A stretch of 64,000 bases of DNA from an uncultured Giesbergeria sp. (GCA_947624595.1 CANQLC010000015.1:4005-68004), one strand, 5' to 3'. Counted from the stretch's first letter, positions 7,199-48,223 are shown. Notes: generated by a model from the letters alone, not told the origin. Numbers and translations: made by a program.

Positions 7199-8187
7199 TC
7201 TTTGGAGTCCAGCCGTTGCAGCACCGCTTGCACCAGTTGGGCGGTGGCGTTGGAGTGGTCGCAGGCAATTACTTGGCGCTCGGTCATGCTGCGCAGCCAC
7301 GTCACTTGGCGTTTGGCGAGCTGGCGCGTGGCGATGATGCCGCGTTCGCGCAGCTCGGTGGTGTCCAGCGGCGTGCCATGCGCGGCGGCGGCTTGCGCGT
7401 CCAGCGCCTGCCACGCTTGGCGGTAGCCGACGCAGCGCATCGAGGGCAAATCCGGGTGCAGGTCGCCGCGTGCGCGCAGTTGGCGTACTTCGTCGATAAA
7501 GTCTTGTTGCAACATGCTGTCAAAGCGCAGGGCGATGCGCTCGTGCAGCCAAGCCCGGTCTTGTGGTTCTAAGGAAAAAAGGTCTCTAGCCCTTATGGGA
7601 CTTGCGCTAGCAGCTATGGTTTTTGATGTGTGAAAGCTCGATAACGGTCGCCCTGATATTTGCCACACCTCCAGCGCGCGCTGAATGCGTTGGCTGTCGG
7701 CAGGTGCTAAGCGCGCGGCGGTGATCGGATCGATCTGCGCCAGATTGGCGTGCAGCGCTGGCCAGCCGCGCTCTAGCGCCTGGGCCTCAATCTGTGCGCG
7801 CACAGCGGGGTCGGCGGCGGGCATGTCGTCAATGCCGTCAATCAGCGCTTTGAAATACAACATGGTGCCACCCACCAGCAGCGGCAGTGCGCCGCGGGCG
7901 CGGATCTTGGCAATCAGTTGTGTGGCATCGCGCACAAATTCGGCGGCGCTGTAGGCGTGCAGCGGGTCGCGGATGTCGATCAGGTGGTGCGCCACGGCGG
8001 CGCGCTCGTGCGCCGTTGGTTTGGCGCTGCCAATGTCCATGCCCCGGTACACCAAGGCCGAATCGACGCTGATGATTTCGACCGGTAAGTGCCGTGCCAG
8101 CACGGCGGCCACAGCCAGCGCACCGGCGGTTTTGCCCGAGGCGGTGGGGCCTGTAATTGCCAAGCAAGGTAGGTTGGGTTTATTCAC
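7195..8187 (-). CDS. miaA: tRNA dimethylallyltransferase
   Basis: [48 protein letters not shown]; GTG start chosen at 8187. Confidence 0.95.
7575..7629 (+). repeat. REP-like element copy inside miaA
   Basis: aaaaaaggtctctagcccttatgggacttgcgctagcagctatggtttttgat; encodes [17 protein letters not shown]. Confidence 0.85.
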
Positions 8188-9421
8188 GGGGTTCTCCAAA
8201 GCGCGGCACCAAAATCCAAGCGACAGCGCCGAGCACCAGCGACCAAAACCACACGCCATAGACCAGCGGCCAGACCGTGCCGTCCAAGTGCCGACCGACC
8301 CAGCCGCCCATCGCAAAGGCGGCCAACATCATCATGAAACCGTTCAGCGCCGAGGCCATGCCGGCGGCTTGTGGAAAGGGACCGACCGCGCCGGATTGTC
8401 CGCACGGCTGGTGGATGCCGTGGCCGAGCATGAACAGATAAAACGGCAGCAGCAGCGCCCACGGCTGGTGCCAGCCCAAAGCCGCGACCCCCACCAGCAG
8501 CGTGCCGCCGCTGACGCTCAAACCCGCCGCTAACACCACGGTGCGCTTGAGGCCGTGGCGCGCCAGCAGATAGCGGCAAAAAAAGGTGCCGACAAAGTAG
8601 GCCAGTGCGCTCGACAGCAGCACCCAGCTGTATTGGGTGCGGGTGAGCCCGAGCACTTCAATAAAGACAAACGACGAAGCCGCTAAAAACGTAAACAGCC
8701 CACCGTAACTGGCGGTGGTCAGCAGCGAAAACGCCCAGAACGTGGGGTGGCGCAGCACTGTCAACCAAGTGCGCAGCAGCGTGGCCGGTTGCAGGGCGCG
8801 TGGGTTTTTGTTTTGCAGCGTTTCGGGCAGGCGCAGCGCAACCAGCGCCAGCGTGACCAGCGCATAGGCGGTGAGCGCCAACAGCGCCGCGCGCCAGCCC
8901 AGCCACTCGGTCAGCCATCCGCCGATGGGGGCGCACACACAGGCGATGATGCCCAGCCCGGTCAGCGCTTTGGACATGGCGCGTGCGCCGGTCAGCGGGT
9001 TATAGAGGTCGCGCACGATGGCGCGGGCGCACATCACCACCGCGCCCATCGCCGCGCCTTGGGCAATGCGCCAGCCAATTAACAGCTCCATCGACGCCGC
9101 CCAAGCGCTGCCTACCGAAGCTAGTGTGTACAAAATTAAGCCCGTCAATAACACTGGACGGCGGCCAAAGCGGTCAGATAGTGGCCCCCAAATTAATTGC
9201 GAGCTACCAAACGCCAGCAGCAGCGCGCTCAGCGTGAGCTGCCCGGCCGCAACGGGTGCGCCCAAGCTGCGTGTGAGCGCCGGCAAGGCGGGCAAATACA
9301 GATCGGTGGTGACGGGTTGGATGCTCAGCAGCAGCGTGAGCACCATGATGGCCATGCCGGGCGCGATGCTGGCAGGCACAGCAGAGTCAGTGCGCGCAGG
9401 AGAAATAGCAGGGGTAGACAT
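8180..9421 (-). CDS. Bcr/CflA-family MFS drug efflux transporter
   Basis: [28 protein letters not shown] motifs; about 12 TM segments. Confidence 0.88.
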
Positions 9422-9484: not shown

Positions 9485-11302
9485 TTAGAAGCTTTCCCAG
9501 TCGTCCATGCTGTTATCGGCTTTGGCGACAGTTGCGCTGGCGCTGCCGGAGGGCAGTGCTGTGTGGGAGTGTGAAGTTTTAGGGGCTTTGGGCACCTTGA
9601 GTGCGGACGATGTGTTGTGGGTGCCAGAGCGGGTGGGCGCTGCCAAGCCGACAGTTGCACTGTGCTGTACTGGAGCAGCTTTGGCGTTGGGTGAGTGGGT
9701 TGGCGCGTGGGTTGTGCTGCGTTGCATACGGGGGGTGGCGCTGTAGTTTTTCCCTAGTTTGAACATGGCCACGGTTTGCACCAAGTCTTGTGCTTGGGTG
9801 CTGAGGCTGGCGGCAGCGGCAGCCATTTCTTCGACCAGGGCGGCGTTTTGCTGTGTAGTTTGGTCCATTTGTGTCACTGCTTCGCCCACTTGGGAGACTC
9901 CCGCGCTTTGCTCAGAGCTGGCCGCACTGATCTCGCCCATGATGTCGGTGACGCGGCGGATACTGTTGACCACCTCGCTCATTGTCACGCCGGCTTGGCC
10001 GACCAAGCTGGTGCCTTGCTCGACGCGGGTCACGCTGTCGGTGATCAACTCTTTGATCTCTTTGGCTGCATTGGCCGAGCGGCCAGCCAAGCTGCGCACT
10101 TCAGACGCTACCACTGCAAAGCCACGGCCTTGCTCGCCAGCGCGGGCGGCTTCGACGGCGGCGTTGAGTGCCAAGATGTTAGTTTGGAAGGCAATCGAGT
10201 CGATCACGCCAATGATGTCGGCAATTTTTTTGCTCGAATCGTTGATGCCCTTCATGGTGTCCACCACTTGAGCCACGACGTTGCCGCCCTGAATCGCCAC
10301 AGTGCTGGCGCTTTGGGCCAGTTGGTTGGCTTGGCGGGCATTGTCGGCGTTTTGCTTGACGGTGGAACTCAGTTGCTCCATCGACGCTGCAGTTTGCTGC
10401 AGCGCGCTGGCTTGCTCTTCGGTGCGACCCGACAGGTCTTGGTTGCCTTCTGAAATTTGCGTACTGGCCGAGGCCACGGCTTCTGAGCCTTCGCGCACAT
10501 GGGCGACTACTTTGGCCAAACCGTCGCGCATGGTTTTGATTTCGGCCAGCAAGCTGGTGCTGTCGCCGGGCTGGGTTTGGACTTCAACCGCCAAATTGCC
10601 GCTGGCAATTTCGTGTACCACGCTGGCGGTGTAGTCAGGCTCGCCGCCGAGTTGGCGGGTGATCGAGCGCGTCAGCACCCAAGCGATGAGTGCGCCCATC
10701 AACGCAGCCACGCCGGCAATGATTAAAAGCAGTTGGCCCGTGAACGCCGTGGTGTTTTGCACAGTTTGCGCCGACTGGTTCATCACTTTTTCTTGGTGCG
10801 CAATGAGGTTGTCCAAAGCTTGTAAATAGCCCTGCAGAAAAGGGCGGCTTTTGCGTAGCAACTCTGGACTGACCGGCTCGCCATTAACAGCCATAGCTGC
10901 AGCCATGATCTCGTCAATATTGGCGTTGTAGGGGCCGCGAACTTGGGTGAGTTTTTCCATTAGCGCACGGCCTTCAGCACTTTGAACGCTGGCGGTCAGT
11001 GCTTGCATCAGCGGACTGGTTTTTCTGCGAATTTCTTCAATACTTTGTTTCTCCGCCTGCATTTGCTGCGGATCGCTGGACGTAGCGATGTTGTTCACCG
11101 CGTTTGCCACCTCATTGAGGTTGTCTTTAATGCGGTTGAGTTGGCCCACTTTGACCACGCGGTCATTAACCAAAAGGCGCATTTCCTTCTCAATAGAGTT
11201 CAGCTCGATGCGGCCCAAAAGGGCTACCACCAATCCGGCCAATATCACCAGTGCAAAGCCCAGACCCAGGCGAACGCCCACTCGCATATTAGAAAATGAC
11301 AT
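9485..11302 (-). CDS. Methyl-accepting chemotaxis protein (4HB sensor, C-terminal pentapeptide DWESF)
   Basis: Two TM, signalling domain [34 protein letters not shown]. Confidence 0.95.
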
Positions 11303-12950: not shown

Positions 12951-14819
12951 TTAACGTCCGCGCAAAAAAAGCGTGTCCAGCTCACGCAGCGCTAGCTGGC
13001 GCCACGTTGGGCGACCGTGGTTGCATTGGTCACAGCGCTCGGTGACTTCCATCTGGCGCAGCAGGGCGTTCATTTCAGGCAGCGTCAGGCTGCGGTTGGC
13101 GCGCACTGCGCCGTGGCAGGCCATGGTGGCGAGAATTTCGTTGCGCGCGCGTTGCACCACGGTGCTGGCGTCGTGCGCGCTCAGTTCCGCCAGCACACTG
13201 CGCGCCAGCTCGACCGCATTGCCCTGCGCCAGCGTGGTCGGCACGGCGCGCACCGCCAGCGTCTTGGGCGAGAACGGCACCACTTCCAGCCCCAGCTGCG
13301 CCAGTGTCTCGTGGCAGGCCTCGGCGCAGGCGACTTCCTCCAAGGTGGCGGCAAAGGTGGCGGGGATGAGCAGCGGCTGGCTGGCAATGCGCGCGGTGCT
13401 ATCGACTTGGGATTTAAGTCGCTCGTAAACGATGCGCTCATGCGCGGCGTGCATATCCACCAGGACTAAGCCTTGCGCGTTCTCGGCCAAGATGTAAACG
13501 CCGTGCAGCTGCGCCAGTGCCCGCCCTAGCGGCCAAGTCGGGGCGTCTGGTTCTGGCGGCGCGGCTGCTGGCGCTGTTGGCCGGCTGGACGCATCAACGC
13601 GCAACGGCACCGGTTGACCCCACAGCGCGCTTAAATCACTGACGCGGTGGCCAGTTCGCTCGTCAGGGTCTTTAAATTTATCAAAATTGATAGCTGCTTG
13701 CGCAGGTATTGATTGGGCTAGAGGCTGATTTGATGCATATTCTGTGGGCGGGGCTTCAGCAGTGGCCACCACTGCCAAGGCTGCAGCGCGTGGCGGCGCC
13801 AGTGCATCTTCCAGTGCATGGCGCACGGCTTGGTGTACTTCGCGGCTGTCGCGAAAGCGCACTTCGATTTTGGTCGGGTGTACGTTGACATCGACCCGCG
13901 CCGGGTCGATGGCGATGTGCAGCGCATACACCGGCTGGCGCTGACCGTGCAGCACGTCTTCATACGCACTGCGGGCGGCGTGGCTCAGCACCTTGTCGCG
14001 CACAAAGCGGCCGTTGACATAACTGTATTGCTGATCCGCCCGCGAGCGCGCCGCGTCAGGCAGACCAGCACGGCCAGTGACGGTGACGCGCCCGTTGCTG
14101 TACTGCACCGGCACGGACTGCGCGACAAAGCTCTCGCCCAGCACATCGGCCAAGCGCCGCGCTAGGGCGTCAGGCAAATCACCGCCATCAGCCAACGTAG
14201 CGCGCCACTGCTCGAGCAGCTTGCCGTCGTGCCAGATGGCAAAGCCGACGTCGGGGCGCGCTAAGGCGTGGCGGCGCACCGCTTCGATACAGTGCGCCAG
14301 CTCGGTGGCGTCGGTTTTTAAGAATTTGCGCCGCGCTGGGGTGGAGAAAAACAGCTCTTTCACTTCGACTGTGGTGCCGGTGCTGCGTGCGACCGGGCGC
14401 AGCTCGCCGCTGCGGGCATCGAGCAAAAAGGCGTTGGCTTGCTCGGCGGGGCGCGACAGCAGCGCCATCTCGGACACCGAAGCAATGGCGGCCAGCGCCT
14501 CGCCGCGAAAACCCATCGTGGCCACGGTTTCTAAGTCGTGCAGATTGGTGATTTTGCTGGTGGCGTGGCGGCGCAGGGCGATTGCCAGCTCGGCTTGGGC
14601 GATGCCGCTGCCGTCGTCTTCGACGGCAATCAAGCGCACACCGCCCGCCGACAGACGCACGGTGACTTGGCGCGCGCCGGCATCCAGCGCGTTATCGACC
14701 AGCTCGCGCACCACCGAGGCGGGGCGTTCGACCACTTCGCCAGCGGCAATTTGGCTGATCAGTTCGTCGGGCAGGTCACGGATGGGGCGGCGTGTGGGAG
14801 TTGAAATAGAGATATTCAC
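12951..14819 (-). CDS. mutL: DNA mismatch repair endonuclease MutL
   Basis: IAAGEVVERPASVVRELVDN, GFRGEAL, DMHAAHER, ACHGAV, CNHGRP; GTG start chosen at 14819. Confidence 0.96.
   Translation of the reverse strand: MNISISTPTRRPIRDLPDELISQIAAGEVVERPASVVRELVDNALDAGARQVTVRLSAGGVRLIAVEDDGSGIAQAELAIALRRHATSKITNLHDLETVATMGFRGEALAAIASVSEMALLSRPAEQANAFLLDARSGELRPVARSTGTTVEVKELFFSTPARRKFLKTDATELAHCIEAVRRHALARPDVGFAIWHDGKLLEQWRATLADGGDLPDALARRLADVLGESFVAQSVPVQYSNGRVTVTGRAGLPDAARSRADQQYSYVNGRFVRDKVLSHAARSAYEDVLHGQRQPVYALHIAIDPARVDVNVHPTKIEVRFRDSREVHQAVRHALEDALAPPRAAALAVVATAEAPPTEYASNQPLAQSIPAQAAINFDKFKDPDERTGHRVSDLSALWGQPVPLRVDASSRPTAPAAAPPEPDAPTWPLGRALAQLHGVYILAENAQGLVLVDMHAAHERIVYERLKSQVDSTARIASQPLLIPATFAATLEEVACAEACHETLAQLGLEVVPFSPKTLAVRAVPTTLAQGNAVELARSVLAELSAHDASTVVQRARNEILATMACHGAVRANRSLTLPEMNALLRQMEVTERCDQCNHGRPTWRQLALRELDTLFLRGR
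13678..13736 (-). repeat. REP-like element copy inside mutL linker
   Basis: tcaaaattgatagctgcttgcgcaggtattgattgggctagaggctgatttgatgc; encodes ASNQPLAQSIPAQAAINFD. Confidence 0.85.
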
Positions 14820-14892
14820 TGAGATGATTTTAGGTAAGGCATGAAAAAGGCTGCCCGCAGGCAGCCTTGGTATCTCAGCGCTATTGCCTACT

Positions 14893-15126
14893 TCAGCGGC
14901 GATTGTTTCGGTCGCTTTTTTTGCCGACCTCGTTGCCAATCAACGCGCCAGCGGCTGCGCCGCCGATGGTGCCCAGCGTTGAGCCAAACACCGCATCGCC
15001 GACTACGCCGCCGGCGACTGCGCCGACACCAGTACCAATTTGCGCGTTGCTGGGGTTGCTGGCGCAGCCGCCCAGCGCGAGGATGGCAGTCAGTACGCAG
15101 GTGGCGCTAAAAATAGAATGTTTCAT
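14893..15126 (-). CDS. Small glycine-zipper lipoprotein (OsmB-like)
   Basis: Lipobox LGGC; GxxxG zipper GTGVGAVAGGVVG...GAAAGALIG. Confidence 0.8.
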   Translation of the reverse strand: MKHSIFSATCVLTAILALGGCASNPSNAQIGTGVGAVAGGVVGDAVFGSTLGTIGGAAAGALIGNEVGKKSDRNNRR

Positions 15127-17934: not shown

Positions 17935-19023
17935 TGGGTTCCTCAGATTCAGCAATGGGCACGGGATTTGGGATTTTCTCAAATCGGTATCGCCGGGGTC
18001 GATTTGTCCAGTGCCGAGCCCGGATTGATGCAGTGGCTGGCGCAAGGGTTCCACGGCGAGATGCATTACATGGCTGCGCATGGCCTCAAACGCGCCCGCC
18101 CGGCCGAGTTGGTGCCCGGTACCGTCAGTGTGATTACCGCCCGCATGAATTATTTACCGCGCAATACGCTGGATGTCTCAGGAGGCTGGCAGGCGCTGGA
18201 GTTTGCGCGCCTGGCCGATCCGGCGCAGGGCGTGGTCTCGGTCTATGCCCGAGGGCGCGATTATCACAAAGTACTGCGCGCGCGTCTGCAAAAGCTCAGT
18301 GACCGGATTGCGCAGGCGCTCGGGCCGCTAGGCCACCGGGTGTTTACTGACTCCGCCCCGGTGCTCGAAGCCGAGTTGGCCGCGCGCAGCGGCCAAGGCT
18401 GGCGCGGCAAACATACGTTGGTGCTCAGCCGCGACGCCGGCTCGATGTTCTTTTTGGGCGAGATTTATATCGACATCGCCCTGCCCCACAGCAAGCCGCT
18501 CAGCGCCCACTGCGGCCAGTGCCGCGCTTGCATCGATGTGTGCCCAACGCAAGCCATCCTTGCACCACACCGGCTGGATGCGCGCCGTTGCATCTCTTAT
18601 CTGACGATTGAGCACGCTGGGCCGATTCCGCTCGAATTGCGCCCGCTTTTGGGAAACCGCATCTATGGCTGTGACGATTGCCAGCTGATTTGCCCCTGGA
18701 ACAAATACGCACAAGTCAGCAGCTTGCCCGACTTTGATGCCCGCGCGGGTTTGAGCGCTCAGCAGTTGGTGCATTTGTTTGCGTGGGATGAGGCGACGTT
18801 TTTGCGCCAAACTGAAGGTGGCCCGATTCGCCGCATTGGCCACGAGCGCTGGCTGCGCAACATTGCCGTGGCGCTGGGCAATGGGCTGGCGCTGAGTGGT
18901 GATGCAGTGGTGCGTGCCGCTTTACGTGCCGCGCTACACACCCGCGCCGCGCACGACAGCGCACTGGTGCGCGAGCATGTGGCGTGGGCGTTAGCGCAAA
19001 ATAACAGTCAAATCGGCCTCTAG
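17908..19023 (+). CDS. queG: Epoxyqueuosine reductase
   Basis: YARGRDYH, DSAPVLE, CGQCRACIDVCPT, CISYLTIE, GCDDCQLICPWN, WLRNIAVALGN. Confidence 0.95.
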   Translation: MVVSSSHSQWVPQIQQWARDLGFSQIGIAGVDLSSAEPGLMQWLAQGFHGEMHYMAAHGLKRARPAELVPGTVSVITARMNYLPRNTLDVSGGWQALEFARLADPAQGVVSVYARGRDYHKVLRARLQKLSDRIAQALGPLGHRVFTDSAPVLEAELAARSGQGWRGKHTLVLSRDAGSMFFLGEIYIDIALPHSKPLSAHCGQCRACIDVCPTQAILAPHRLDARRCISYLTIEHAGPIPLELRPLLGNRIYGCDDCQLICPWNKYAQVSSLPDFDARAGLSAQQLVHLFAWDEATFLRQTEGGPIRRIGHERWLRNIAVALGNGLALSGDAVVRAALRAALHTRAAHDSALVREHVAWALAQNNSQIGL

Positions 19024-19062
19024 CCCTTTAAATATGTGCGCTAGTAGCTATCAATTTTAAAA
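19010..19062 (+). repeat. REP-like element copy supplying the queG stop codon
   Basis: aaatcggcctcTAGccctttaaatatgtgcgctagtagctatcaattttaaaa. Confidence 0.85.
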
Positions 19063-19072: not shown

Positions 19073-20362
19073 TCAGGCTTGATCGAGGTGATCCGCCCAC
19101 GCCAACGCTTCCATGTGCGCCATGTTGACTTGGCGGCTGCTCAGGTTCAGGGCATCGACGTGGTGGGCAAACAGCGTGTCGTCGCCGCTCTCGCAGGCCT
19201 TGGTCAGCGCCAAGAAGGGGGCAAATACGCCTCGGTTGTGTAAGAGCGCGTCCAGCACCGGCTCGGGCAGGGCGAGCGAGTCCAGCGCCTCTTCCATCGG
19301 AATGCCCAGCATGGTGTCGAGCATGGAGAACACGCCGACGACAAAGGCGTTATCGCATTCCTCGGGCCGCAGCAGCTCGGCGGCCAGCAGCTCCATCAAG
19401 CGCCCGCGCACCACGGCCATGGTGCCAATGGCCGGCGCAGCGTTGTCCGCGCGTGAGGTGGTCAGCAGCAAAGCGGCCCAGCGAAACAGCTTTTTGAAAC
19501 CCAAAATCATCACCGCGTGGCGAAACGAGGTAATCTCGCACGACAGGCCAAAGCCCGAGGAGTTGATAAAGCGCAGCAGGTTGAACGACAGCGTTGGGTC
19601 TTTTTTCAGCAGCGCTTCGATTTCTGTGGTCTCGGCTTGGTTGCGCACCAAGTTGATGAGCTGAATGATGGTGGCGTGCGAGGGGCGCAGCGTTTGTGTC
19701 TTGACCAGCGCTGGCTGGGAGAACCAGTAGCCCTGAAACAGCTTGACCTCTAACTGAGCCATCAGCGCGTGTTGCTCGGGGGTTTCGACTTTTTCGGCAA
19801 CGATTTGGGCGCGGGTGTAAGTGCGGGCAAATTTGACCAAGTCTTTGGCCTGTTCGGGCGCAAAGGCCGTCATGTCCAGCTTGATAAACGCCGTCAGTGC
19901 TAGCCAAGGGGCATAAATGGGGCGCAGTGCCTCTTGGTTCAGTGCAATGCGAAAGCCGCGCTTGTTCAGTGCCAACAGCGGTTGTAAGTGGTATTCGATG
20001 TCGTCGGCGCTGGGATCGGGGTCGTCCAATGCGGGTACTTCCAGCACCACTTTGTCGGGGTGTACCAGCTCTAGGTGGCCGCCGCGCAAGCTGTCGCGGG
20101 TGCAGTTGATGAACACCAGCTTTTTGCTGCCTACTGCCTTAACGCCCGCCGATGACAGCGCATTGAACAGCAGCGCTGCATCGGTGGTGGCCGTGTGCTC
20201 TTTGGCGGTGGTGGAGCGGTCAAACAGCTCGTAACCAAATACCGCCCGGTTAGCATCGACGATGGCTTGGCGGGCAATCACGGCCACGTTGCTGGCTTTG
20301 AAGGCTTCGGCAGAAGCGGTGGTGGGGGCGTTGGGGGCGGGATGGGCAGTGGTGTGGGGCAT
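19073..20362 (-). CDS. EAL + HDOD domain protein (degenerate EAL)
   Basis: ARQAIV..GYELFDRS, FINC, AEKVET, FQGYWF; HDOD FNLLRFINS. Confidence 0.85.
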   Translation of the reverse strand: MPHTTAHPAPNAPTTASAEAFKASNVAVIARQAIVDANRAVFGYELFDRSTTAKEHTATTDAALLFNALSSAGVKAVGSKKLVFINCTRDSLRGGHLELVHPDKVVLEVPALDDPDPSADDIEYHLQPLLALNKRGFRIALNQEALRPIYAPWLALTAFIKLDMTAFAPEQAKDLVKFARTYTRAQIVAEKVETPEQHALMAQLEVKLFQGYWFSQPALVKTQTLRPSHATIIQLINLVRNQAETTEIEALLKKDPTLSFNLLRFINSSGFGLSCEITSFRHAVMILGFKKLFRWAALLLTTSRADNAAPAIGTMAVVRGRLMELLAAELLRPEECDNAFVVGVFSMLDTMLGIPMEEALDSLALPEPVLDALLHNRGVFAPFLALTKACESGDDTLFAHHVDALNLSSRQVNMAHMEALAWADHLDQA

Positions 20363-20409: not shown

Positions 20410-21678
20410 TCAATCTGCGATGTGATCGGCCCAGACCAGTGCCTGTAAATGGGCACCGTTGATTTGCGCGCTGCTCAGCTGCAAGACGTTGGCGGCGCGG
20501 TCAAAGGCGGCGTCGTCGCTGGATTCGCAGGCCTGCGCTAAGTTCAGTAAATTGCCCAGCTTGCCAGTGCCGTGCAGCAGCGCCTCTTCTACTTCTGCTG
20601 GGACGCGCAGCAAGTTCAGCGCCTCCTCCATTGGCATGCCCAGCATCACGTCGAGCAGCGAAAAAATGCCGGCGACAAACGCTTGGTCGGCCTCGTCTTG
20701 CGCCATGCCGCTCTCGGCGGCTAACAGCTCCATCAGTCGACCGCGCACCACGGCGGTTTGGCCGACCGATGAGGGCATGCCGCTGTGGCGTGAGGTAGTC
20801 AGCAGCAGGGCGGCCCAGCGGAACAGCTTTTTCAGTCCTAGCAGCATCACGGCTTGGCGAAACGAGGTGATCTCGCGCGCCATGCCAAAGCCCGACGAGT
20901 TGATCAACCTCATCAGGTTAAAGGCCAAGCCGGCGTCCTTTTTTAGCAGCGCTTCGATTTCGTCGGTGCTGGCCTGTGCGCGCACCAAGCTGATCAGACC
21001 CAAGATACTGGTTTGGGCTGGCGTGACCAGCTTGGTATGTACCAAGGCGGGTCGGGCAAACCAGTAGCCTTGAAACAGCTGCACGCCTTGGCTGGAGACC
21101 ATGTCGTATTGCTGCGCGGTTTCGACTTTCTCGGCAATCAAGTCGGCCTTGGAGTAGCGGTTGGCGTATTTGATTAATACCGCCAACTGGTCCGGTGCCA
21201 GCACCGACAAGTCCAGCTTGATGTAGTCGGCCAGCGCCAGCCACGGCGCGTAGGCTGACTGCAGCACCGTGTGGTTAAACGCCAAGTGAAAGCCGCGCTG
21301 GCGCAGGCTGGCCAAAATCGGCAGGCGGGTGGTGACTTCCTCGGTCGCGTTGTGCCCTAGTGGGGGAATCTCCAGCACCACTTTGTCTGGCTCGACCAAT
21401 TCAAGGTGGCCGCCGGCCAAGCTTTCATGCGTGCAGTTGACGAAGATGAGTTTTTTGCCGACTAGCTCGTCGCTGCCAGCGTGTGATAGGGCGGTGAACA
21501 CCAGCGCCACATCGGTTGCCGCCGTATGCGCGGGACCCGAGCGCGAGCGGTTAAATAGCTCGTAGCCAATCACCATGTGCTGGGCGTTGACGATGGCTTG
21601 GCGGGCAATCAAGGTGGCCGAAGAGGGCTGCGCCTGAGGTGGGACAGGAACTTGGGTGGGGGTGCTGGACATGTTCAA
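20410..21678 (-). CDS. EAL + HDOD domain protein, tandem paralog
   Basis: ARQAIV..GYELFNRS, AEKVET, FQGYWF, FNLMRLINS; colinear with 19073-20362. Confidence 0.85.
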   Translation of the reverse strand: MNMSSTPTQVPVPPQAQPSSATLIARQAIVNAQHMVIGYELFNRSRSGPAHTAATDVALVFTALSHAGSDELVGKKLIFVNCTHESLAGGHLELVEPDKVVLEIPPLGHNATEEVTTRLPILASLRQRGFHLAFNHTVLQSAYAPWLALADYIKLDLSVLAPDQLAVLIKYANRYSKADLIAEKVETAQQYDMVSSQGVQLFQGYWFARPALVHTKLVTPAQTSILGLISLVRAQASTDEIEALLKKDAGLAFNLMRLINSSGFGMAREITSFRQAVMLLGLKKLFRWAALLLTTSRHSGMPSSVGQTAVVRGRLMELLAAESGMAQDEADQAFVAGIFSLLDVMLGMPMEEALNLLRVPAEVEEALLHGTGKLGNLLNLAQACESSDDAAFDRAANVLQLSSAQINGAHLQALVWADHIAD

Positions 21679-21745: not shown

Positions 21746-22549
21746 TCAGTGTTGTCGTAACCATTGCAACTCTGCCTCACTGAAGCCGGCTTGGCGCCTA
21801 GCGGCTTCGTTAAACGGCGGCCTCAGGCGCGGCGCTTGGTACTGTTGTACCAGACTTGGATAGTGCGCTTGGGGGTCGAGCTGGCTTTGGGCGCATAACC
21901 AGTAGTACCAATGGTTACCAATAGCAACATGGCCGATTTCGTCGCGCAGTATCACGTCCAAGATGTCGGCGCCGGCCAGCGCATCGGGCGCGCCCACTTG
22001 GCGCAGTTTGCGTTGAATCAGCGGTGTAGCGTCCAAGCCGCGCGCTTCCATAGTGCGCGGCACCAGCGCCATGCGTGCCAGCACATCGTGCTCGGTTTTT
22101 TCGCACATCGTCCACAGGCCTTGGTGGGCCGGGTAGTCGCCGTAGTCGTGGCCTATGGTGCGCAGGTGCGCGCGCAGCAGGTTGAAGTGCAGTGCTTCTT
22201 CCGCCGCAATGCGCAGCCAGTCCAAGTAGTACTGGCGCGGCATACCGTCAAAACGCCATATCGCGTCCAGCGCTAAGTTGATGGCGTTGAATTCAATATG
22301 CGCAATGGCGTGGATCAGCACGGCGCGCCCCTCCAGCGTGGCCGGCGAGCGCTGCGCCACCTCGCTGTGGCGCACCAGCAGCGGGCGCTCGGGGTGGCCG
22401 GGCAGGGGCGGTGCATCGGCGGCGCGCACGGGGGCTTTTTCTGCTATTGAATAAGTAGCTGCAACCGCTTGCATATAAAGGGTTTGAGCCGCTTTTTGCT
22501 CAAAATCAGTGAGGCTTAAGACCTGTAAGGCGTGGTGACGAAGTTCCAT
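21746..22549 (-). CDS. Ferritin-like DUF455 protein
   Basis: HAIAHIEFNAINLA, EEALHF, EARGLD, DEIGHV di-iron-type motifs. Confidence 0.85.
   Translation of the reverse strand: MELRHHALQVLSLTDFEQKAAQTLYMQAVAATYSIAEKAPVRAADAPPLPGHPERPLLVRHSEVAQRSPATLEGRAVLIHAIAHIEFNAINLALDAIWRFDGMPRQYYLDWLRIAAEEALHFNLLRAHLRTIGHDYGDYPAHQGLWTMCEKTEHDVLARMALVPRTMEARGLDATPLIQRKLRQVGAPDALAGADILDVILRDEIGHVAIGNHWYYWLCAQSQLDPQAHYPSLVQQYQAPRLRPPFNEAARRQAGFSEAELQWLRQH
22443..22500 (-). repeat. Degenerate REP-like copy inside DUF455 gene
   Basis: gctat-tgaataa-gtagctgcaaccgcttgcatataaagggtttgagcc; encodes AAQTLYMQAVAATYSIA. Confidence 0.7.
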
Positions 22550-25169: not shown

Positions 25170-26590
<1,421 letters not shown>

Positions 26591-29243: not shown

Positions 29244-30473
29244 ATGAATGAACTTGCTGGTAAACACATTGTTTTGGGGCTCAGCGGCGGCGTGGCTTGC
29301 TACAAGTCGGCCGAGCTGTGCCGTCTGCTGACCAAAGAGGGCGCCACCGTGCAGGTGGTGATGACCGAAGCCGCCGAGCACTTTATGACGCCGGTCACCA
29401 TGCAGGCCCTCTCAGGGCGCGCGGTGTATGGCTCGCAGTGGGACGCGCGCGAGCCCAACAACATGCCGCACATCAACCTGAGCCGCGAAGCCGATGCCAT
29501 CGTGATTGCGCCGTGCAGTGCGGACTTTGTGGCGCGGCTGGCGCAGGGGCGAGCGGACGAATTGCTCAGCCTGCTGTGCCTTGCGCGCCCGCAAGACAGC
29601 GTGCCGCTGCTGCTAGCACCGGCCATGAACCGCGAGATGTGGGCGCACCCCGCCACCCAGCGCAATTTGGCGCAGGTGGCGCAAGACGGCGCGGTGGTGC
29701 TGGGCGTGGGCCACGGCGACCAAGCCTGCGGCGAAACCGGCGACGGGCGCATGTTGGAGGCGACGGAGCTGTTAGAAGAAATCGTCGCCTTTTTCACGCC
29801 CAAACGCTTGGCCGGCCAGCGCGTGCTGATTACCGCTGGCCCGACGTTTGAGTCGATTGACCCAGTGCGCGGCATCACCAACCACTCCAGCGGCAAGATG
29901 GGTTTTGCCATCGCCCGCGCCGCCCGCGAAGCCGGCGCTGAGGTCACGCTGATTGCCGGCTCCGTCCACCTGCCGACGCCGCGCGGCGTGCAGCGGATTA
30001 ACGTGCAATCTGCATCAAATATGCTTGAAAGCGTTGTGCAGCATGCGCAAGCAGCTACTATTTTTATAGCGACGGCGGCGGTGGCCGATTGGCGTCCCGC
30101 CGCGCAGTCCGAGCAAAAAATCAAAAAAGACGGCTCCGGCCAAATGCCGGTGCTGGAGTTTGTCGAAAACCCCGACATTTTGGCGACGGTGGCGCAGTCG
30201 CCGCACGCGCTGGTGGGCGATTTGTTTTGCGTCGGCTTTGCGGCCGAAAGCCACGATTTGCTGGCCCACGCCACGGCCAAACGGGCGCGCAAAGGCGTGC
30301 CGCTGCTGGTGGGCAACATCGGTCCTGCGACGTTTGGGCGTGACGACAACGCGCTGCTGCTGGTCGATGCCCACGGCCACCGCGAACTGCCGCCGGCCTC
30401 CAAACGGGTGCTGGGGCAGCAACTGGTGGCAGAAATTGCCAGCCGATTGCCCCCTTCTTTGAACTCTATTTGA
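29244..30473 (+). CDS. coaBC: Bifunctional PPC decarboxylase/PPC synthetase
   Basis: [46 protein letters not shown]. Confidence 0.96.
30013..30070 (+). repeat. Degenerate REP-like copy inside coaBC
   Basis: ...gcatgcgcaagcagctac-tattttt-atagc; encodes [19 protein letters not shown]. Confidence 0.6.
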
Positions 30474-36678: not shown

Positions 36679-36737
36679 ACTATTTATTTGATAGCTGATA
36701 GCGCACGTATTTAAAGGGCTAAAGGCTGTTTTGATGC
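36679..36737 (-). repeat. REP-like element copy, intergenic
   Basis: actat-ttatttg-atagctgatagcgcacgtatttaaagggctaaaggctgttttgatgc. Confidence 0.8.
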
Positions 36738-38129: not shown

Positions 38130-38224
38130 CGCAGCGAATGTAACGATTGCGGCGGTTTTCTGCTTGACAGTTACCTTAACGTCACATACAGCCAGTAGAA
38201 ACCCTATCACTACAATCGCGCACC

Positions 38225-40246
38225 ATGGCTGTAAAACCCACCTCTGTGACCCCTTCTCCCTCCGCTTCCTCCACTGCAACCCTGCCCGAATATTCCGAAA
38301 GCTCCATCCGCGTGCTCAAGGGCTTGGAGCCGGTCAAGCAGCGCCCGGGGATGTACACCCGCACCGACAACCCGCTGCACATCATCCAAGAAGTGCTGGA
38401 CAACGCCGCCGACGAAGCCCTCGCTGGCCACGGCAAAAAAATCAAAGTCACGCTGCACCAAGATGGCTCGGTCAGCATTGACGACGATGGCCGGGGCATT
38501 CCGTTTGGCCTGCACCCGGAGGAAAACGCCCCGGTGATTGAGCTGGTATTCACCCAGCTGCACGCTGGCGGCAAGTTTGACAAAGGCAAGGGCGGCGCTT
38601 ACAGCTTCTCTGGCGGTCTGCACGGCGTGGGCGTCTCCGTCACCAACGCGCTGTCGCAGCGCATGGAAGTGGCCAGCCACCGCGAAGGCCAAGTGGCAAC
38701 GCTGGTGTTCTCCGGCGGCGACGTCATCGAGCCGCTGGCTTTGCGCCCGCAAGCCACGGGCGAGCGCCGCCAAGGCACCAGCGTGCGTGCGTGGCCCGAT
38801 GCCAAATATTTTGAATCCAGCCAACTGCCGATGCCGGCGCTGATTCACCTGCTGCGCAGCAAAGCGGTGCTGATGCCCGGCGTCTCGGTGACGCTGGTCA
38901 ACGAGCAAAACGGTGACAAGCGCGACACGCAAACGTGGCAATACAAAGGCGGCCTGCGCGACTATTTGCAGCAAACGCTGTCGGCCGACCCGGTGATTCC
39001 GCTGTTTGAAGGCAGCGGCTTTGCCAGCGCTGCCGACGAAAACTTTGCCGAAGGCGAGGGCGCCGCGTGGTGCGTCGCCTTCACCGAAGACGGTGGCGTG
39101 GTGCGCGAGAGTTACGTCAACCTGATTCCGACCAGCGCCGGCGGCACTCATGAGAGCGGCCTGCGCGATGGCCTGTTCCAAGCCGTCAAAGGCTTTATTG
39201 AGCTGCACAGCCTGCTGCCCAAAGGCGTGAAGCTGATGCCGGAAGACGTGTTCGCCCGCGCCAGCTACGTGCTCTCGACCAAAGTGCTGGATCCGCAATT
39301 CCAAGGCCAAATCAAAGAGCGGCTGAACTCGCGCGATGCAGTGCGGCTGGTCAGTAGCTTTGTGCGCCCGGCGCTGGAACTGTGGCTGAACCAGCACGTT
39401 GAATACGGCAAAAAGCTGGCCGAGCTGGCGATCAAAGCCGCGCAGACGCGCCAAAAAGCCAGCCAAAAAGTCGAAAAGCGCAAAGGCTCGGGCGTGGCCG
39501 TGCTGCCCGGCAAGCTGACCGATTGCGAAAGCCGCGACACGGCCTACAACGAAGTGTTTCTGGTCGAGGGCGATAGCGCCGGTGGCAGCGCCAAAATGGG
39601 CCGCGACAAAGAAACCCAAGCCGTGCTGCCGCTGCGTGGCAAGGTGCTGAACACGTGGGAAGTCGAGCGCGACCGGCTGTTTGCCAACAACGAAATCCAC
39701 GACATTTCTGTCGCCATCGGTGTCGATCCGCACGGCCCGAACGACACGCCGGATTTGTCCGGCCTGCGCTACGGCAAGATTTGTATCCTGAGCGACGCGG
39801 ACGTCGATGGCTCGCACATCCAAGTGCTGCTGCTGACCTTGTTCTTCCGCCACTTTCCCAAGCTGATTGACGCCGGCCACATCTACGTTGCGCGCCCGCC
39901 GCTGTTTCGCGTCGATGTGCCAGCGCGCGGCAAAAAACCGGCCGCCAAGGTGTATGCGCTGGACGAGGGCGAGCTGACCGCCATCCTCGACAAAGCCGAA
40001 AAAGACGGCGTGGCGCGCGACAAATGCAGCATCAGCCGCTTCAAAGGCTTGGGCGAGATGAACGCCGAGCAGCTGTGGGAAACCACCCTCAACCCCGACA
40101 CGCGCCGCCTGCTGCCGGTGCAACTGGGCGGCATGGACTTTGGCGCGACCGAAGCTTTGATCACCAAGCTGATGGGCAAAGGCGAAGCCGCCGCCCGCCG
40201 CGAGCTGATGGAGCTGCACGGCAACAGCGTAGAGCTGGATATTTGA
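38225..40246 (+). CDS. parE: DNA topoisomerase IV subunit B
   Basis: QEVLDNAADE, DDGRGIP, GGLHGVGVSVTNALS, VEGDSAGG, RFKGLGEM. Confidence 0.96.
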   Translation: MAVKPTSVTPSPSASSTATLPEYSESSIRVLKGLEPVKQRPGMYTRTDNPLHIIQEVLDNAADEALAGHGKKIKVTLHQDGSVSIDDDGRGIPFGLHPEENAPVIELVFTQLHAGGKFDKGKGGAYSFSGGLHGVGVSVTNALSQRMEVASHREGQVATLVFSGGDVIEPLALRPQATGERRQGTSVRAWPDAKYFESSQLPMPALIHLLRSKAVLMPGVSVTLVNEQNGDKRDTQTWQYKGGLRDYLQQTLSADPVIPLFEGSGFASAADENFAEGEGAAWCVAFTEDGGVVRESYVNLIPTSAGGTHESGLRDGLFQAVKGFIELHSLLPKGVKLMPEDVFARASYVLSTKVLDPQFQGQIKERLNSRDAVRLVSSFVRPALELWLNQHVEYGKKLAELAIKAAQTRQKASQKVEKRKGSGVAVLPGKLTDCESRDTAYNEVFLVEGDSAGGSAKMGRDKETQAVLPLRGKVLNTWEVERDRLFANNEIHDISVAIGVDPHGPNDTPDLSGLRYGKICILSDADVDGSHIQVLLLTLFFRHFPKLIDAGHIYVARPPLFRVDVPARGKKPAAKVYALDEGELTAILDKAEKDGVARDKCSISRFKGLGEMNAEQLWETTLNPDTRRLLPVQLGGMDFGATEALITKLMGKGEAAARRELMELHGNSVELDI

Positions 40247-40256: not shown

Positions 40257-40315
40257 AGTGTTTTAGGCCTCTAGCCCAATAGATACGTGCGCTAGCAGCT
40301 CTCATTTTTGAATAA
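40257..40315 (+). repeat. REP-like copy, left flank of TA module
   Basis: ttttaggcctctagcccaatagatacgtgcgctagcAGCTCTCATTTTTGAAT. Confidence 0.85.
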
Positions 40316-40666: not shown

Positions 40667-40667
40667 G

Positions 40668-41072: not shown

Positions 41073-41080
41073 ATAATAGA

Positions 41081-41137
41081 TAAAAACAGCCTCCAGCCCT
41101 TATATAGCAAGCGCTGTTAGCTCTCATTTTTGAATTA
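41081..41137 (+). repeat. REP-like copy, right flank of TA module
   Basis: aaaaacagcctccagcccttatatagcaagcgctgttAGCTCTCATTTTTGAAT. Confidence 0.8.
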
Positions 41138-43545: not shown

Positions 43546-43673
43546 TGGGCCGATAGCCTGAGCGCAGGCGGTGCGCTCTTGCACATTGGCCTTGCGCATC
43601 TTTGTTCTCTATGGCTTTGGGCAGTACATTGCTGCTTTCCATGCTATTTACCAGAGAAGAAGGAGGGGCTTGT

Positions 43674-45209
43674 ATGCAGCAGCTTCGCATTGCGCACAAA
43701 TTGTGGTTGTCTGTGCTCGCCATCGTGGCGTTGTTGGTGGCGGCGATTGGTTTTGCCGGTTATCGCACTGCCAAGCTCGAGAGCGAGAGCGATGCGGCCA
43801 GTGTTGCCTTGGCCACCCGCGTGGCCTTGGCGCTGCGCTGGACGGGTTTGACCGAGACCAACGCCGCCCGCACCCAAGCCGTCATTGTCAGCAGCGACCC
43901 CGAGGTCGAGCGGGTGTTCAAGGATGCGATGGCCGCCACCACCGCCAGCATTGGCGAGGTGCAAAAGCGCATCGAAGCGATGGATTTGCCCCAGACCGAC
44001 CGGGCGCAAATGGCCCAAATTGCCGAGGCGCGCAAAACAATGGCAGCGGCCCGCGCCAAGGCGCGCCAGCTCAAGGCTGCTGGGCAGTTGGACGAAGCGG
44101 TGGCGTTTATCAACGGCACTTACAACCCGGCCTCGGACGCCTATCTACAAACCCTGCGCGACTTTGTACAAATGCAGCAGCAGGCCGCGAGCCAACAAGA
44201 AACCATCACCGCCAACGCGCGCATGGCGACGGTGCAAATGGTGGCTGCAGCACTGGGTGCAGTGTTGCTGGCGCTGGTGGTCGGCGCTGCGGCCTTGATC
44301 CGCAGCATCCAGCAGCCGCTGGCGCAGGCCAACGCACTGGCGGCGCAGATTGCTTCGGGCGATTTGAGTGCCCACGCGCAAGTCTCGCGCGGCGATGAGT
44401 TTGGCGAGCTGCTGCGCGCGCTCTACGCCATGAGCGCCTCGCTGGGGCGCATGGTGCAGCAGGTGCGCCAAAGCACCGACAGCATTGCCACCGCCAGCAG
44501 CCAAATCGCCAGTGGCAACCACGACCTGTCGGCGCGCACCGAGCAAACCGCCAGCAACCTGCAACAAACTGCGGCGGCGATGGAAGAGTTCAGCAGCACC
44601 ATCAGCCAAAGTGCCCACAGCGCGCAGCAGGCCAGCACGCTGGCCGCCGGTGCTTCAGGCGTGGCGCGGCGCGGCGGCGAGGTGGTCGGTCAAGTGGTCA
44701 GCACGATGGAGGAGATCAACCACAGCAGCCAAAAAATTGCCGACATCATTGGCGTGATCGACTCGATTGCTTTCCAAACCAACATCTTGGCGCTCAACGC
44801 GGCGGTGGAAGCGGCGCGCGCTGGTGAGCAAGGCCGTGGCTTTGCTGTGGTGGCCAGTGAGGTGCGCAGCTTGGCTGGCCGCAGTGCGCAGGCAGCCAAA
44901 GAGATCAAAGATTTGATTACCGCCTCGGTCGAACGGGTAGGCGCTGGCCAGCGGTTGGTGCAAGACGCCGGCACCACCATGCACGACATCGTGCAATCGG
45001 TGCAGCGCGTGACCGACATGATTGGCGAAATCACCTCGGCCTCGACCGAGCAAAGCACGGGAATTGCGCAGGTCGCTCAGGCCGTGGGCAACCTCGACCA
45101 GATGACGCAGCAAAACGCCGCGCTGGTCGAAGAAAGCGCCGCCGCCGCGCAAAGCCTGCACGAGCAAGCTGACCAACTGGCGCAAGTGGTGGCGGCGTTT
45201 AAGGTTTAA
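43674..45209 (+). CDS. Methyl-accepting chemotaxis protein (4HB, HAMP, no pentapeptide)
   Basis: RBS AAGGAGG; RGDEFG HAMP; [18 protein letters not shown]. Confidence 0.95.
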
Positions 45210-45664: not shown

Positions 45665-45727
45665 GGTGTTTCCTTGGATAAAAACGGGTGAAAAAAGCAC
45701 TGAGAGGGTAAGACAGAAAAACACTGT

Positions 45728-48223
45728 TTGGTGTTTATGGCCTTTAGCATCGCGCTTATGTCCGCCGCTGTCTTTGCCGAGCCTGTTCGCTCTTTACCCG
45801 CGCTGGTGCCGCTGTTGCTGGGCGCGCTGCTGGGCTCAGCGCTGCAGGTACGCCAGCCGCAGCTGTGGTCGGTGCTGGTGTATGCGGCGCTGGGTTTAAG
45901 CAGTGCGGCGGCGCTAGGCGCGCTGTGGCGGTGGGGGCGGCAGCGCCGAGGGTTTAGCTTTGCCGTGGTGCTGGCTACTGCCGGCGTGCTGTTTGCCGTC
46001 TGCGGACTGCGCGCCAGCGACTTTGCTGCGCAGGCACTGAATCCGGCGCTGGAGGGGCGCGACATCCGCATCACGGGCGTGATTGCCGCCATGCCGCAGC
46101 CGATTGACGGCGGCGTGCGCTTGCGCTTGGCGGTGGAAGCGGCGCAACTGGACGGCTCAGCCGTGCAACTGCCGGCGCTGATTGACTTGGGCTGGTACGC
46201 CGGCGGCTGGCGCGAGAGCAGCGGCGCTGGCGCGGGTGCCAAACAACCGGGCAGCGTGCCGGCTCTGCGCGCTGGCGAGCGCTGGCAACTCACTGCCCGC
46301 CTGAAGGCGCCGCACGGCGAGCGCAATCCGCACGGTTTTGACTACGAGCTGTGGCTGTGGACGCAAGGCGTGCAAGCTGTGGGCTACGTGCGCGCCGGTG
46401 CCAAAGACCTGCCACCACAGCGCTTGGCCGCTACGTGGCGCTACCCCATAGAGCAAGCGCGCCAATCGGTGCGCGATGCGATTTTTGCCCGCTTGGCCAG
46501 CGACCCGACCGACGCCGCCGCCGTGCGCACCGCCGGTGTCGTGGCAGCGTTGGTGACCGGAGACCAGCGCGCCATTGACCGCGCCGATTGGGAAGTGTTC
46601 CGCGCCACCGGCGTAGCGCATTTGATGAGCATTTCTGGCCTGCACATCACGCTGTTTGCGTGGGTGGCGGCACTGCTGGTGCGCTGGCTGTGGCGGCGTT
46701 CGGCGCGTTTGTGCTTGCGCTGGCCGGCACCGTCGGCGGCGCTGGTGGGCGGGGTGTTGTTGGCGCTGGCGTATGCGCTGTTTAGCGGCTGGGGCGTGCC
46801 GGCGCAGCGCACCATTGCCATGCTCAGCACGGTAGCGCTGCTGCGCCTGAGTGGGCGGCGCTGGCCGTGGCCGCACGCGTGGCTGCTGACCTGCGCGGTG
46901 GTGGTGCTGCCCGACCCGTGGGCGCTGTGGCAGGCCGGCTTTTGGCTGAGTTTTGTTGCCGTCGCCGTGCTTTTTGCTACTGATAAAGGAGCTGCTAGCG
47001 AAGGTAGGACGGGCGTTAGAGGCCAATTTGTCTCACTATTGCGCGAGCAAGGCGTGGTGACGCTGGCGCTGACGCCGCTGACGCTGCTGCTGTTTGGGCA
47101 GGTGTCGCTCGTCGGGCTGGTGGCCAATTTGCTGGCGATTCCGTGGGTGACGCTGGTGGTCACGCCGCTGGCTTTTGCTGGCGTGCTGTGGCCGCCGCTG
47201 TGGCAGTTGGCTGGCTGGGCGGTGTGGGGTTTGAGCGCGCTGCTGCAATGGCTGGCCGCGCTGCCGTTGGCCAGCGTCTGGGTGGCGGTGGCGCCGTTGT
47301 GGGCGGGCGCGGCGGGTGTGGCCGGTGGTGTTTTATTAGCGATGCGTTTTCCGTGGCAAGTGCGTTTGCTGGGTTTGCCGCTGCTGCTGCCGGTGCTGCT
47401 GTGGCAAGCGCCGCGCCCCGCGCCGGGGCAGTTTGAGCTGCTCGCTGCCGACGTCGGCCAAGGCAATGCCGTGCTGGTACGCACCGCTAAGCACACGCTG
47501 CTGTACGACACCGGGCCGCGCTACAGCGCCCACAGCGACGCCGGTGGCCGGGTGCTGGTGCCGCTGCTGCGGGCTTTGGATGAGCATGTTGATGTGCTGC
47601 TGCTGAGCCACCGCGACAGCGACCACACCGGCGGCGCGGCAGCCGTGCTGGCGCAGCAACCGCAGGCGCAACTCATCGGCTCGATTGAAGACGAACACCA
47701 TTTGCAAACCCTGCGCCCGGTGCAGCCGTGCGTCGCCGGCCAGCAGTGGCAGTGGGACGGCGTTGATTTTGCCGTGCTGCACCCGCTGGCCACTGACGTA
47801 GCCAGCGGCCAGCGCTCGCGCAACCCCAATACGCACAGCTGCGTGCTGCGCATCAGCACGCCGCAGGGCGCAGTGGCGCTGCTTGCGGGAGATATTGAAA
47901 AACCCCAAGAGCGCGCGCTGCTTGAGCGCCAAGCGCCCCTCGCCGCTGATGTGCTGCTGGTGCCGCACCACGGCAGCAAAACCTCGTCGAGCGGTGATTT
48001 TTTGGACGCGGTGCAGCCGCGCGTGGCGCTGGTGCAGGCGGCCTACCGCAGCCGCTTTGGCCATCCGGCGGCACCCGTCATGCAGCGTTATCACGAGCGC
48101 GGCATTGCGGTGTGGGAGTCGGCGCATTGCGGCGCGGCGACGTGGCAGTCCACCGATCCAGCGCAGGTGCTGTGCGAACGTGAGCAGCAGCGTCGCTATT
48201 GGCAGCACCAGATTGCGCCGTGA
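45728..48223 (+). CDS. comEC: DNA internalization competence protein ComEC/Rec2
   Basis: NPHGFDYE, HLMSISGLH, DVGQG, SHRDSDHTGG, PHHGSKTSS; start uncertain. Confidence 0.92.
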   Translation: MVFMAFSIALMSAAVFAEPVRSLPALVPLLLGALLGSALQVRQPQLWSVLVYAALGLSSAAALGALWRWGRQRRGFSFAVVLATAGVLFAVCGLRASDFAAQALNPALEGRDIRITGVIAAMPQPIDGGVRLRLAVEAAQLDGSAVQLPALIDLGWYAGGWRESSGAGAGAKQPGSVPALRAGERWQLTARLKAPHGERNPHGFDYELWLWTQGVQAVGYVRAGAKDLPPQRLAATWRYPIEQARQSVRDAIFARLASDPTDAAAVRTAGVVAALVTGDQRAIDRADWEVFRATGVAHLMSISGLHITLFAWVAALLVRWLWRRSARLCLRWPAPSAALVGGVLLALAYALFSGWGVPAQRTIAMLSTVALLRLSGRRWPWPHAWLLTCAVVVLPDPWALWQAGFWLSFVAVAVLFATDKGAASEGRTGVRGQFVSLLREQGVVTLALTPLTLLLFGQVSLVGLVANLLAIPWVTLVVTPLAFAGVLWPPLWQLAGWAVWGLSALLQWLAALPLASVWVAVAPLWAGAAGVAGGVLLAMRFPWQVRLLGLPLLLPVLLWQAPRPAPGQFELLAADVGQGNAVLVRTAKHTLLYDTGPRYSAHSDAGGRVLVPLLRALDEHVDVLLLSHRDSDHTGGAAAVLAQQPQAQLIGSIEDEHHLQTLRPVQPCVAGQQWQWDGVDFAVLHPLATDVASGQRSRNPNTHSCVLRISTPQGAVALLAGDIEKPQERALLERQAPLAADVLLVPHHGSKTSSSGDFLDAVQPRVALVQAAYRSRFGHPAAPVMQRYHERGIAVWESAHCGAATWQSTDPAQVLCEREQQRRYWQHQIAP
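46976..47034 (-). repeat. REP-like copy inside comEC
   Basis: gctac-tgataaa-ggagctgctagcgaaggtaggacgggcgttagaggccaatttg; encodes ATDKGAASEGRTGVRGQF. Confidence 0.75.

Follow-up and report, generated by a model that had tools for sequence, protein, structure and literature searches.

A dispersed DNA motif of the Comamonadaceae that may be overprinted on existing codons of housekeeping genes at fixed chromosomal sites

A 64,000-nucleotide stretch from an uncultured Giesbergeria sp. (GCA_947624595.1 CANQLC010000015.1:4005-68004), referred to here as the window, carries 15 copies of a dispersed DNA repeat of 55-63 bp, six of which are translated in frame within protein-coding genes: those for an FtsX/MacB-type permease, MiaA, MutL, a DUF455 protein, CoaBC and ComEC. 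An earlier note on this stretch had described the repeat as a selfish element that writes peptides of about 18 amino acids (aa) into essential proteins, in the manner of Rickettsia palindromic elements (RPEs). The 16-18-aa stretches are indeed encoded by genuine copies, but their insertion is not supported, and the element is not palindromic. Judged from alignments, none of the six coding copies in the window appears to be a net insertion, and genome-wide both outcomes exist. We lean towards reading the repeat as an ancient DNA motif, dispersed in genomes of the Comamonadaceae, that stays at fixed sites and is overprinted on genes, with the encoded peptides as tolerated by-products.

Repeats were located in the window and 11 of its copies were aligned; the family profile was then iterated with nhmmer over the whole assembly of the source genome (G000; 2.91 Mb in 32 contigs, the window being C15:4005-68004). 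The genome was assigned to Simplicispira, in the Comamonadaceae; its MiaA has its best matches in S. metamorpha and Acidovorax kalamii. The consensus of these 11 copies is about 55 nt long (TTGAGTCAAATCGGCCTCTAGCCCTTTAAATACGTGCGCTAGCAGCTATCAATTT). In the logo of 334 ungapped copies the element spans about 63 bp, with two GC boxes that each hold one CTAG and lie exactly 21 bp apart, and with AT-rich arms on either side. Genome-wide, the profile finds approximately 655 copies (318 plus, 337 minus), about one per 4.5 kb. All six coding segments of the window match it (21-50 bits), the peptides are found where the earlier note had placed them, and Pfam confirms all six host genes as well as queG (FtsX and MacB_PCD in the permease, IPPT in miaA, MutL domains either side of the copy). 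Five of the coding copies lie within 7575-47034, the range first proposed for them, and the permease copy lies outside it. The proposal that the element supplies the queG stop is borne out: the TAG at 19021-19023 is the first TAG of an intergenic copy at the end of that gene.

Comparison of protein lengths relied on outgroups and on congeners, in most of which the element is abundant. Five of the 19 congeners (G002, G014, G008, G009 and G012) lack it wholly or almost wholly, and one relative (G010, about 80% DNA identity) is element-rich. The coaBC copy encodes what we take to be a helix and then a strand of the CoaB Rossmann-like fold. Across it, CoaBC aligns gap-free to M. smegmatis CoaBC and E. 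coli CoaB (PDB 6tgv and 1u7u) and to every aligned congener. The MutL stretch is gap-free in all 13 of 13 congeners, just upstream of the conserved ERxGHRV motif, with an extra DKFKDP immediately downstream of the copy in G000. In MiaA the segment has equal length in 12 of the 14 aligned congeners, including the element-poor G002 and G012, and also in G014; it is 2 aa longer in element-poor G008 and 1 aa longer in G009. The MiaA loop ranges from 14 to 29 aa in other Burkholderiales and gammaproteobacteria, compared with 22 in G000. In an AlphaFold model of MiaA (30 sequences; mean predicted local distance difference test score, pLDDT, 86), the copy residues 193-209 belong to the internal block of lowest confidence (pLDDT 58) and are modelled as a short helix followed by a loop and the first part of a conserved strand. 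The DUF455 protein differs by 0 aa from G010, G014, G002 and the outgroup G027, the element-poor genomes having a homologous but different peptide. ComEC is 2 aa longer than in G010, G014 and G002 and differs by -11 to +3 aa from outgroups. For the permease the difference is 0 aa against G010 and against a weak homolog in G024; G014 and G002 gave no spanning alignment.

A wider sample, in which a chimeric query of many 180-aa segments was searched against congeners and outgroups, includes further cases of the same kind. The MutS copy (53.9 bits) has the same length in 15 congeners, in three other families and in Neisseria MutS, and element-poor congeners carry a GC-rich version that is homologous residue by residue (ELLTLLPPEVDPYLAQI versus ELLAHVYKGLEPYLTQI). 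The M61 peptidase, asparaginase, ECH_2, EarP, RarA and PurL change in length by 0-7 aa, the first five of them by about 0-5 aa. The earlier note had named, as the finding that would speak against insertion, the same peptides at the same length in lineages lacking the element; the length there does match (ComEC being +2 aa), but the sequence is different and GC-rich. Annotating these segments, or treating them in phylogenies, as if they were RPE-like insertions would be wrong, because they are homologous, of the same length and unusual in composition.

The codons themselves carry a DNA-level signature. The GC content at third codon positions (GC3) is 0.40 in 89 in-gene copies compared with 0.76 in their flanks, and an index resembling the codon adaptation index is 0.34 compared with 0.67 (p ~1e-16 for both). 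In coaBC, element-rich genomes read GCA GCT ACT ATT TTT ATA where element-free congeners read GCG GCC AGC GTT TTT ATC, with nearly the same peptide. The AT-ending synonymous codons that match the consensus are limited to element-rich genomes, and protein constraint alone is therefore ruled out as the cause of the resemblance. In the six window genes, codons are replaced one for one with rare codons and no peptide is added, which is not how an ordinary jumping element behaves.

We denote frames F where the strand of the family consensus is coding and R where its complement is, numbered from profile column 1, and in-gene copies were classified with a codon-usage model trained on long open reading frames (ORFs). 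In the window, mutL, coaBC and the DUF455 gene read the motif in F2 (..PLAxxxxAxAAI..), and the permease gene, miaA and comEC read it in R2 (..IAASA..); in either frame, neither of the two CTAG boxes falls within a single reading unit, each being divided between codons. That all six copies fall in F2 or R2 has a probability of ~0.006 given the open frames of 413 intergenic copies (F1 42%, R2 29%, F2 16%, R0 7%, F0 6%, R1 5%). Among the in-gene copies genome-wide (at least 89), the counts are F2 37, R2 28, R0 12, F1 7, F0 3 and R1 2, so that F2 and R2 together make up 73%. Random insertion with stop filtering only would give 36 in F1, 25 in R2 and 13.5 in F2. F1, the frame most often open, encodes a 16-aa peptide and is five-fold depleted, and F2 is enriched 2.7-fold. 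The distribution departs from the intergenic open-frame expectation (chi-square 73.7, p=1.7e-14). The preference for F2 and R2 is therefore real and exceeds avoidance of TAG, since the observed frames differ from the stop-filtered expectation. The statement that only two of six frames are used holds within the window; genome-wide the bias is strong but all six occur. Class-1 cores (WWTARAYAC) have TAA in both F2 and R2, and they make up 53% of intergenic but 9% of coding copies.

The family was detected in 20 of 80 sampled Comamonadaceae genera and was absent from 12 other families of the order. Counterparts of 13 of the 15 copies in the window, among them five of the six in-gene copies, occupy orthologous sites in G010 (coaBC 28.3 bits, comEC 22.4 bits), and with so many positions common to a relative at ~80% identity there is no sign of recent movement. 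Polaromonas retains a recognisable miaA copy (16-20 bits) and Hylemonella a weak one (13 bits); at the same site Acidovorax kalamii has only a 9-bit match, together with a AGCTGGTAGCGC box one mismatch off the consensus. Orthologous copies in G000 and G010 are only about 60% identical. At five of seven orthologous intergenic sites, G000 has a class-1 core and G010 a class-2 core (TTAY...AAGCG), with the outer flanks retained, and MutS likewise carries different canonical cores in sister species. Such core differences at the same site suggest gene conversion or patch replacement between copies.

We infer from this a process in which copies would be passed on vertically at fixed chromosomal sites. 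Within a lineage their DNA would be kept alike, probably through gene conversion between ectopic copies or templated replacement of short patches, and selection for a DNA-level function may reinforce this. Within genes, the motif would usually be written over existing codons without changing protein length, sometimes expanding loops, and it would survive only at places where the protein can accommodate the peptide, read in frames whose residues are harmless (F2, ..PLAxxxxALAAI.., and R2, ..LIAASAxxxxAxGxF..). If overprinting of this kind is correct, a long non-coding DNA signal constrains the codons, and partly the residues, of about 100 housekeeping proteins in each genome across a large family of bacteria, and selection or drive acting on DNA can prevail over codon bias and is readable through protein structure. 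It would also provide a natural test set of 16-18-aa segments tolerated in enzymes, and hint at some protein or recombination process with specificity for a pair of CTAG boxes 21 bp apart.

Several observations weigh against overprinting as the whole account. Of 23 high-scoring in-gene copies compared with outgroups, about half represent net insertions, with 10-29 aa gained (MoeA ~29 aa versus E. coli, FemAB-like ~22, ExbB ~12 and XseA ~18, together with AroE, the UvrD C-terminus and HemD), the differences being taken over spans of about 180 aa that can include unrelated indels. Intergenic sites are 120-140 bp shorter in element-free congeners; the spacer around the copy at 26532, for example, measures 176 bp in G000 compared with 36-56 bp in the element-free G014 and G002. 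Insertion, or subsequent loss of dead copies, therefore occurs as well, and transposition could have seeded the family in the first place. Decayed ghosts of the motif probably persist in element-poor congeners, so equal length within the genus does not by itself exclude an old insertion, and for CoaBC, MutS, DUF455, ComEC and some others it is the outgroups that carry the case against insertion. The analysis turned up no enzyme that would carry out conversion, no protein that binds the motif and no function for it. The net insertions and the short or empty spacers also favour the view that a selfish mobile repeat, akin to a miniature inverted-repeat transposable element, a repetitive extragenic palindrome (REP) or an RPE, transposes into genes and survives where it is in frame, adding about 18 aa; high copy number, enrichment in convergent intergenic regions and the two copies around an MqsRA cassette that correspond to a single G010 copy would fit it as well. 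As a general origin, however, transposition fits poorly with the unchanged lengths of the six window genes, MutS, M61, asparaginase, ECH_2 and others, with the positional stability of the copies and with the depletion of F1, the frame that random insertion predicts to dominate. Terminal inverted repeats, a hairpin and target-site duplications are not evident, although no dedicated search for the last was made, and G000 lacks a Y1 transposase of the REP-associated (RAYT) type (PF01797), other transposase classes not having been searched for. We regard this origin as unlikely in general, though it may apply to the net insertions, and the word selfish, given the lack of Y1/RAYT and the orthologous sites across species, as unproven.

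The weaker coding copies (coaBC, permease and comEC) could in principle be chance or convergent likenesses produced by alanine-rich peptides and the conserved xIFIA strand, and the earlier note had attached a caveat of this kind to coaBC. It was right in that the copy spans a conserved segment at unchanged length; the scores are also low (21-27 bits) and the profile was iterated on its own matches. The DNA likeness is nevertheless specific to element-rich genomes: the sites score equally or better in G010, and no match occurs in element-free congeners under the same protein constraints. Genome-wide E-values are 5e-4 to 1e-5, and GC3 is 0.28-0.38 (coaBC 0.28, permease 0.38) against 0.76 in coding sequence, with rare ATA, CTT, GCA and GCT codons matching the consensus. 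We rejected chance likeness on codon usage and lineage specificity and consider it extremely improbable. A further alternative makes the motif a long analogue of the uptake signal sequences and DNA uptake sequences (USS/DUS), favoured by the competence machinery and accumulated by point changes through biased uptake and recombination. It would account for equal orientations, genome-wide spread and orthologous positions across species, and for in-gene copies that lack indels, sit at poorly conserved positions and are frame-biased, as for USS/DUS (PMC2817400); genome-maintenance genes among the hosts (9 of about 55) and the presence of comEC also agree with it. With two cores in 55-63 bp, however, the motif far exceeds any known uptake sequence, comEC is intact in element-free congeners, the functional enrichment is modest and raw, without gene-length correction, and stepwise point mutation explains the differing canonical cores of orthologous sites less well than copy-and-paste does. 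To our knowledge, no natural transformation or uptake bias has been reported for these bacteria, which also counts against this alternative, and we hold it to be very unlikely.

Tentatively, the motif could be a long DNA-level recognition signal that tags DNA as self or for uptake, or that binds a protein involved in chromosome organisation or repair, with dedicated conversion or drive keeping its fixed sites across the Comamonadaceae; we treat this as a possibility that is not the probable one. If it were true, even genes that are essential and under structural constraint (MutS, CoaBC, Dxr and PurL) would be forced to spell the motif in rare codons, a so far undescribed 60-bp analogue of USS/DUS overprinting.

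Overprinting at fixed sites, the reading that we prefer, can be set beside several known systems. REPs are hairpin palindromes that are almost strictly extragenic and associated with the RAYT (Y1) transposase. The present element resembles REPs, their bacterial interspersed mosaic elements and REPIN-RAYT systems as a high-copy short repeat, apparently mainly just downstream of genes, with convergent enrichment, but it has no hairpin, 14-17% of its copies lie in genes, and the source genome has no Y1 transposase. RPEs are, as far as the summary of Ogata et al. 2000 in PMC10969869 describes them, palindromes of ~100-150 bp that add residues to the host protein. Both are dispersed repeats read in frame in many unrelated housekeeping genes at tolerated positions common to species; in contrast, the present element is 55-63 bp long and non-folding, and host length is unchanged in the six window genes and many others. 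The USS/DUS of Pasteurellaceae and Neisseriaceae have 9-12-bp cores, with USS extending to ~30 bp. Their coding copies show no indels, a reading-frame bias and weakly conserved residues (Findlay & Redfield 2009, PMC2817400). They too are abundant motifs in both orientations at sites common to relatives, and the present copies are likewise without indels and frame-biased, the MiaA copy lying in the lowest-pLDDT block; the present motif differs in its 55-63 bp, its two boxes and its discrete core variants that look copied.

Tong, Schliekelman & Mrazek 2017 (PMC5217627) reported two spaced motif pairs, GCTTAT(N)5AAGCG for Acidovorax ebreus and ATAGCT(N)22CAAAAG for Polaromonas naphthalenivorans. 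According to that paper the pairs are mostly intergenic, lie close to the ends of genes and have no known function; of the 125 copies in Polaromonas, 18 are inside genes. The first pair is the class-2 core of the present family and occurs exactly in the window, where 51626-51660 reads GGCCGCTAGCGCTTATGGGGTAAGCGCTAGCAGCT; the Polaromonas pair probably belongs to the family as well. We found the family in print only as such statistically over-represented pentamer pairs, whereas the full element, its family-wide distribution, in-frame overprinting and frame bias are undescribed there (PMC5217627). Short-patch double illegitimate recombination is a known mechanism that exchanges short patches after annealing of ectopic single strands at microhomologies. 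Through it, the sequence of another copy could overwrite 35-50 bp with little or no change in length, but it is described as very rare and not repeat-specific, and its role at the present element would be by analogy only.

Placement in the genome was assessed with our own rough gene map, which covers 79% of the genome, so that the intergenic count (429 of 655 copies) is inflated; most copies appear to lie just 3' of genes. Within genes lie 89-109 copies (14-17%), at least 89 in frame by the codon-usage classifier and 109 by the gene map. Convergent intergenic regions carry a copy in 42% of cases compared with 17-18% of other intergenic types. The two orientations are equally common, and copies occur all over the genome. 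Regular spacing of the kind that a chromosome-architecture site might show was looked for, but the spacing (coefficient of variation 0.87) is barely more regular than random, for which gene structure can account. All 49 host ORFs scanned with Pfam are real genes, save one without a match. Hosts beyond the window include SelO, MoeA, aconitase, an Hsp70, UvrD and XseA and many essential proteins (MutS, Dxr, LpxB, KdtA, PurL, RibD and NadE).

Genome-maintenance proteins account for 9 of about 55 annotated hosts, namely MutS, MutL, XseA, a UvrA-like protein (two copies), RarA/MgsA, UvrD, ComEC and two type IIL/IIG restriction-modification enzymes, a modest excess by raw count, uncorrected for gene length. 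Their copies lie at C10:32324, C1:112272, C6:165817, C6:167440, C7:124918, C12:88613, C11:4053 and C10:89901, in addition to those of mutL and comEC in the window.

The element is non-folding. Its consensus has folding z-scores of -0.48 and -1.60, with no hairpin and no palindrome; RNAalifold on 100 copies gave neither a consensus structure nor covariation, and Rfam returned zero matches for the repeat. The logo of 334 copies, with 40-nt flanks, has AT-rich ends without clear inverted termini or a duplicated flank, no dedicated search for target-site duplications having been made; a terminator-like hairpin often precedes the copies. An RNA element was rejected because there is no Rfam match and no consensus structure and because orientation is unbiased relative to the upstream gene. 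A REPIN/RAYT system was also rejected, as G000 has no Y1 transposase; among congeners, the presence of PF01797 does not follow element abundance. CTAG is three-fold under-represented genome-wide (3,369 found versus 10,385 expected), and 21% of all CTAGs fall within the copies, which cover 1.2% of the genome. In many variant copies the boxes read CCAG or CTGG. Tandem or overlapping dimers of the element are suggested by the roughly 5% of neighbouring copies that are separated by no more than 45-50 bp.

Table 1 Copies of the repeat in the window, with positions counted from its first nucleotide
Copy (strand)	Location	Bits	E-value	Host ORF (strand)	Frame	Encoded peptide	Peptide quoted in the earlier note	Remarks
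409..456 (+)	FtsX/MacB-type permease gene	27.1	9.5e-6	1-1887 (minus)	R2	16 aa	LIATSA 439-456(-)	
5934..5981 (-)	intergenic	20.4	1.2e-3					weak
7575..7623 (+)	miaA	41.4		7195-8316 (minus)	R2	17 aa	TIAASA 7603-7620(-)	
13684..13736 (-)	mutL, linker	49.5		12951-14939 (minus)	F2	ASNQPLAQSIPAQAAINF	AQAAINF 13683-13703(-)	
19005..19057 (+)	intergenic, at queG end	60.2						orthologous copy in G010
22451..22502 (-)	DUF455 gene, near N-terminus	34.4		21746-22549 (minus)	F2	FEQKAAQTLYMQAVAATY	AVAATYS 22448-22468(-)	
26532..26584 (+)	intergenic	46.6						
30013..30064 (+)	coaBC	24.6	5.8e-5	29157-30473 (plus)	F2	18 aa	AQAATIF 30045-30065(+)	
36687..36737 (-)	intergenic	49.8						orthologous copy in G010
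40257..40308 (+)	intergenic, left of small MqsRA-like cassette	50.6						
41078..41130 (+)	intergenic, right of MqsRA-like cassette	35.3						class-2 core kept
46990..47034 (-)	comEC	21.5	5.4e-4	45728-48223 (plus)	R2	GAASEGRTGVRGQFVS	KGAASE 46985-47002(+)	
48565..48615 (-)	intergenic	57.3						
51615..51668 (+)	intergenic	44.5						class-2 core; contains GCTTAT(N)5AAGCG
57959..58010 (-)	intergenic	58.1						orthologous G010 copy at 55 bits

The copies at 40257-40308 and 41078-41130 flank a 0.8-kb MqsRA-like toxin-antitoxin cassette; in G010, where the cassette is absent, one copy stands in their place. Both flanking copies in G000 keep the rare right flank AGCTCTCATTTTTGAA, and only the left copy has acquired a class-1 core.

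Other features of the window concern its genes. A 262-nt inverted repeat with 82% identity (10039-10300 and 44661-44922) lies inside the ORFs 9485-11302 (minus) and 43602-45209 (plus), which are probably paralogous genes. Two adjacent paralogous minus-strand genes (19073-20362 and 20410-21678) share stretches that are 72-79% identical at an offset of 1.33 kb. ORFs of about 670 aa are open on both strands at 38210-40219(-) and 38225-40246(+); long antisense ORFs are common at such GC content, and for this pair (38210-40246) the codon model favours the plus strand.

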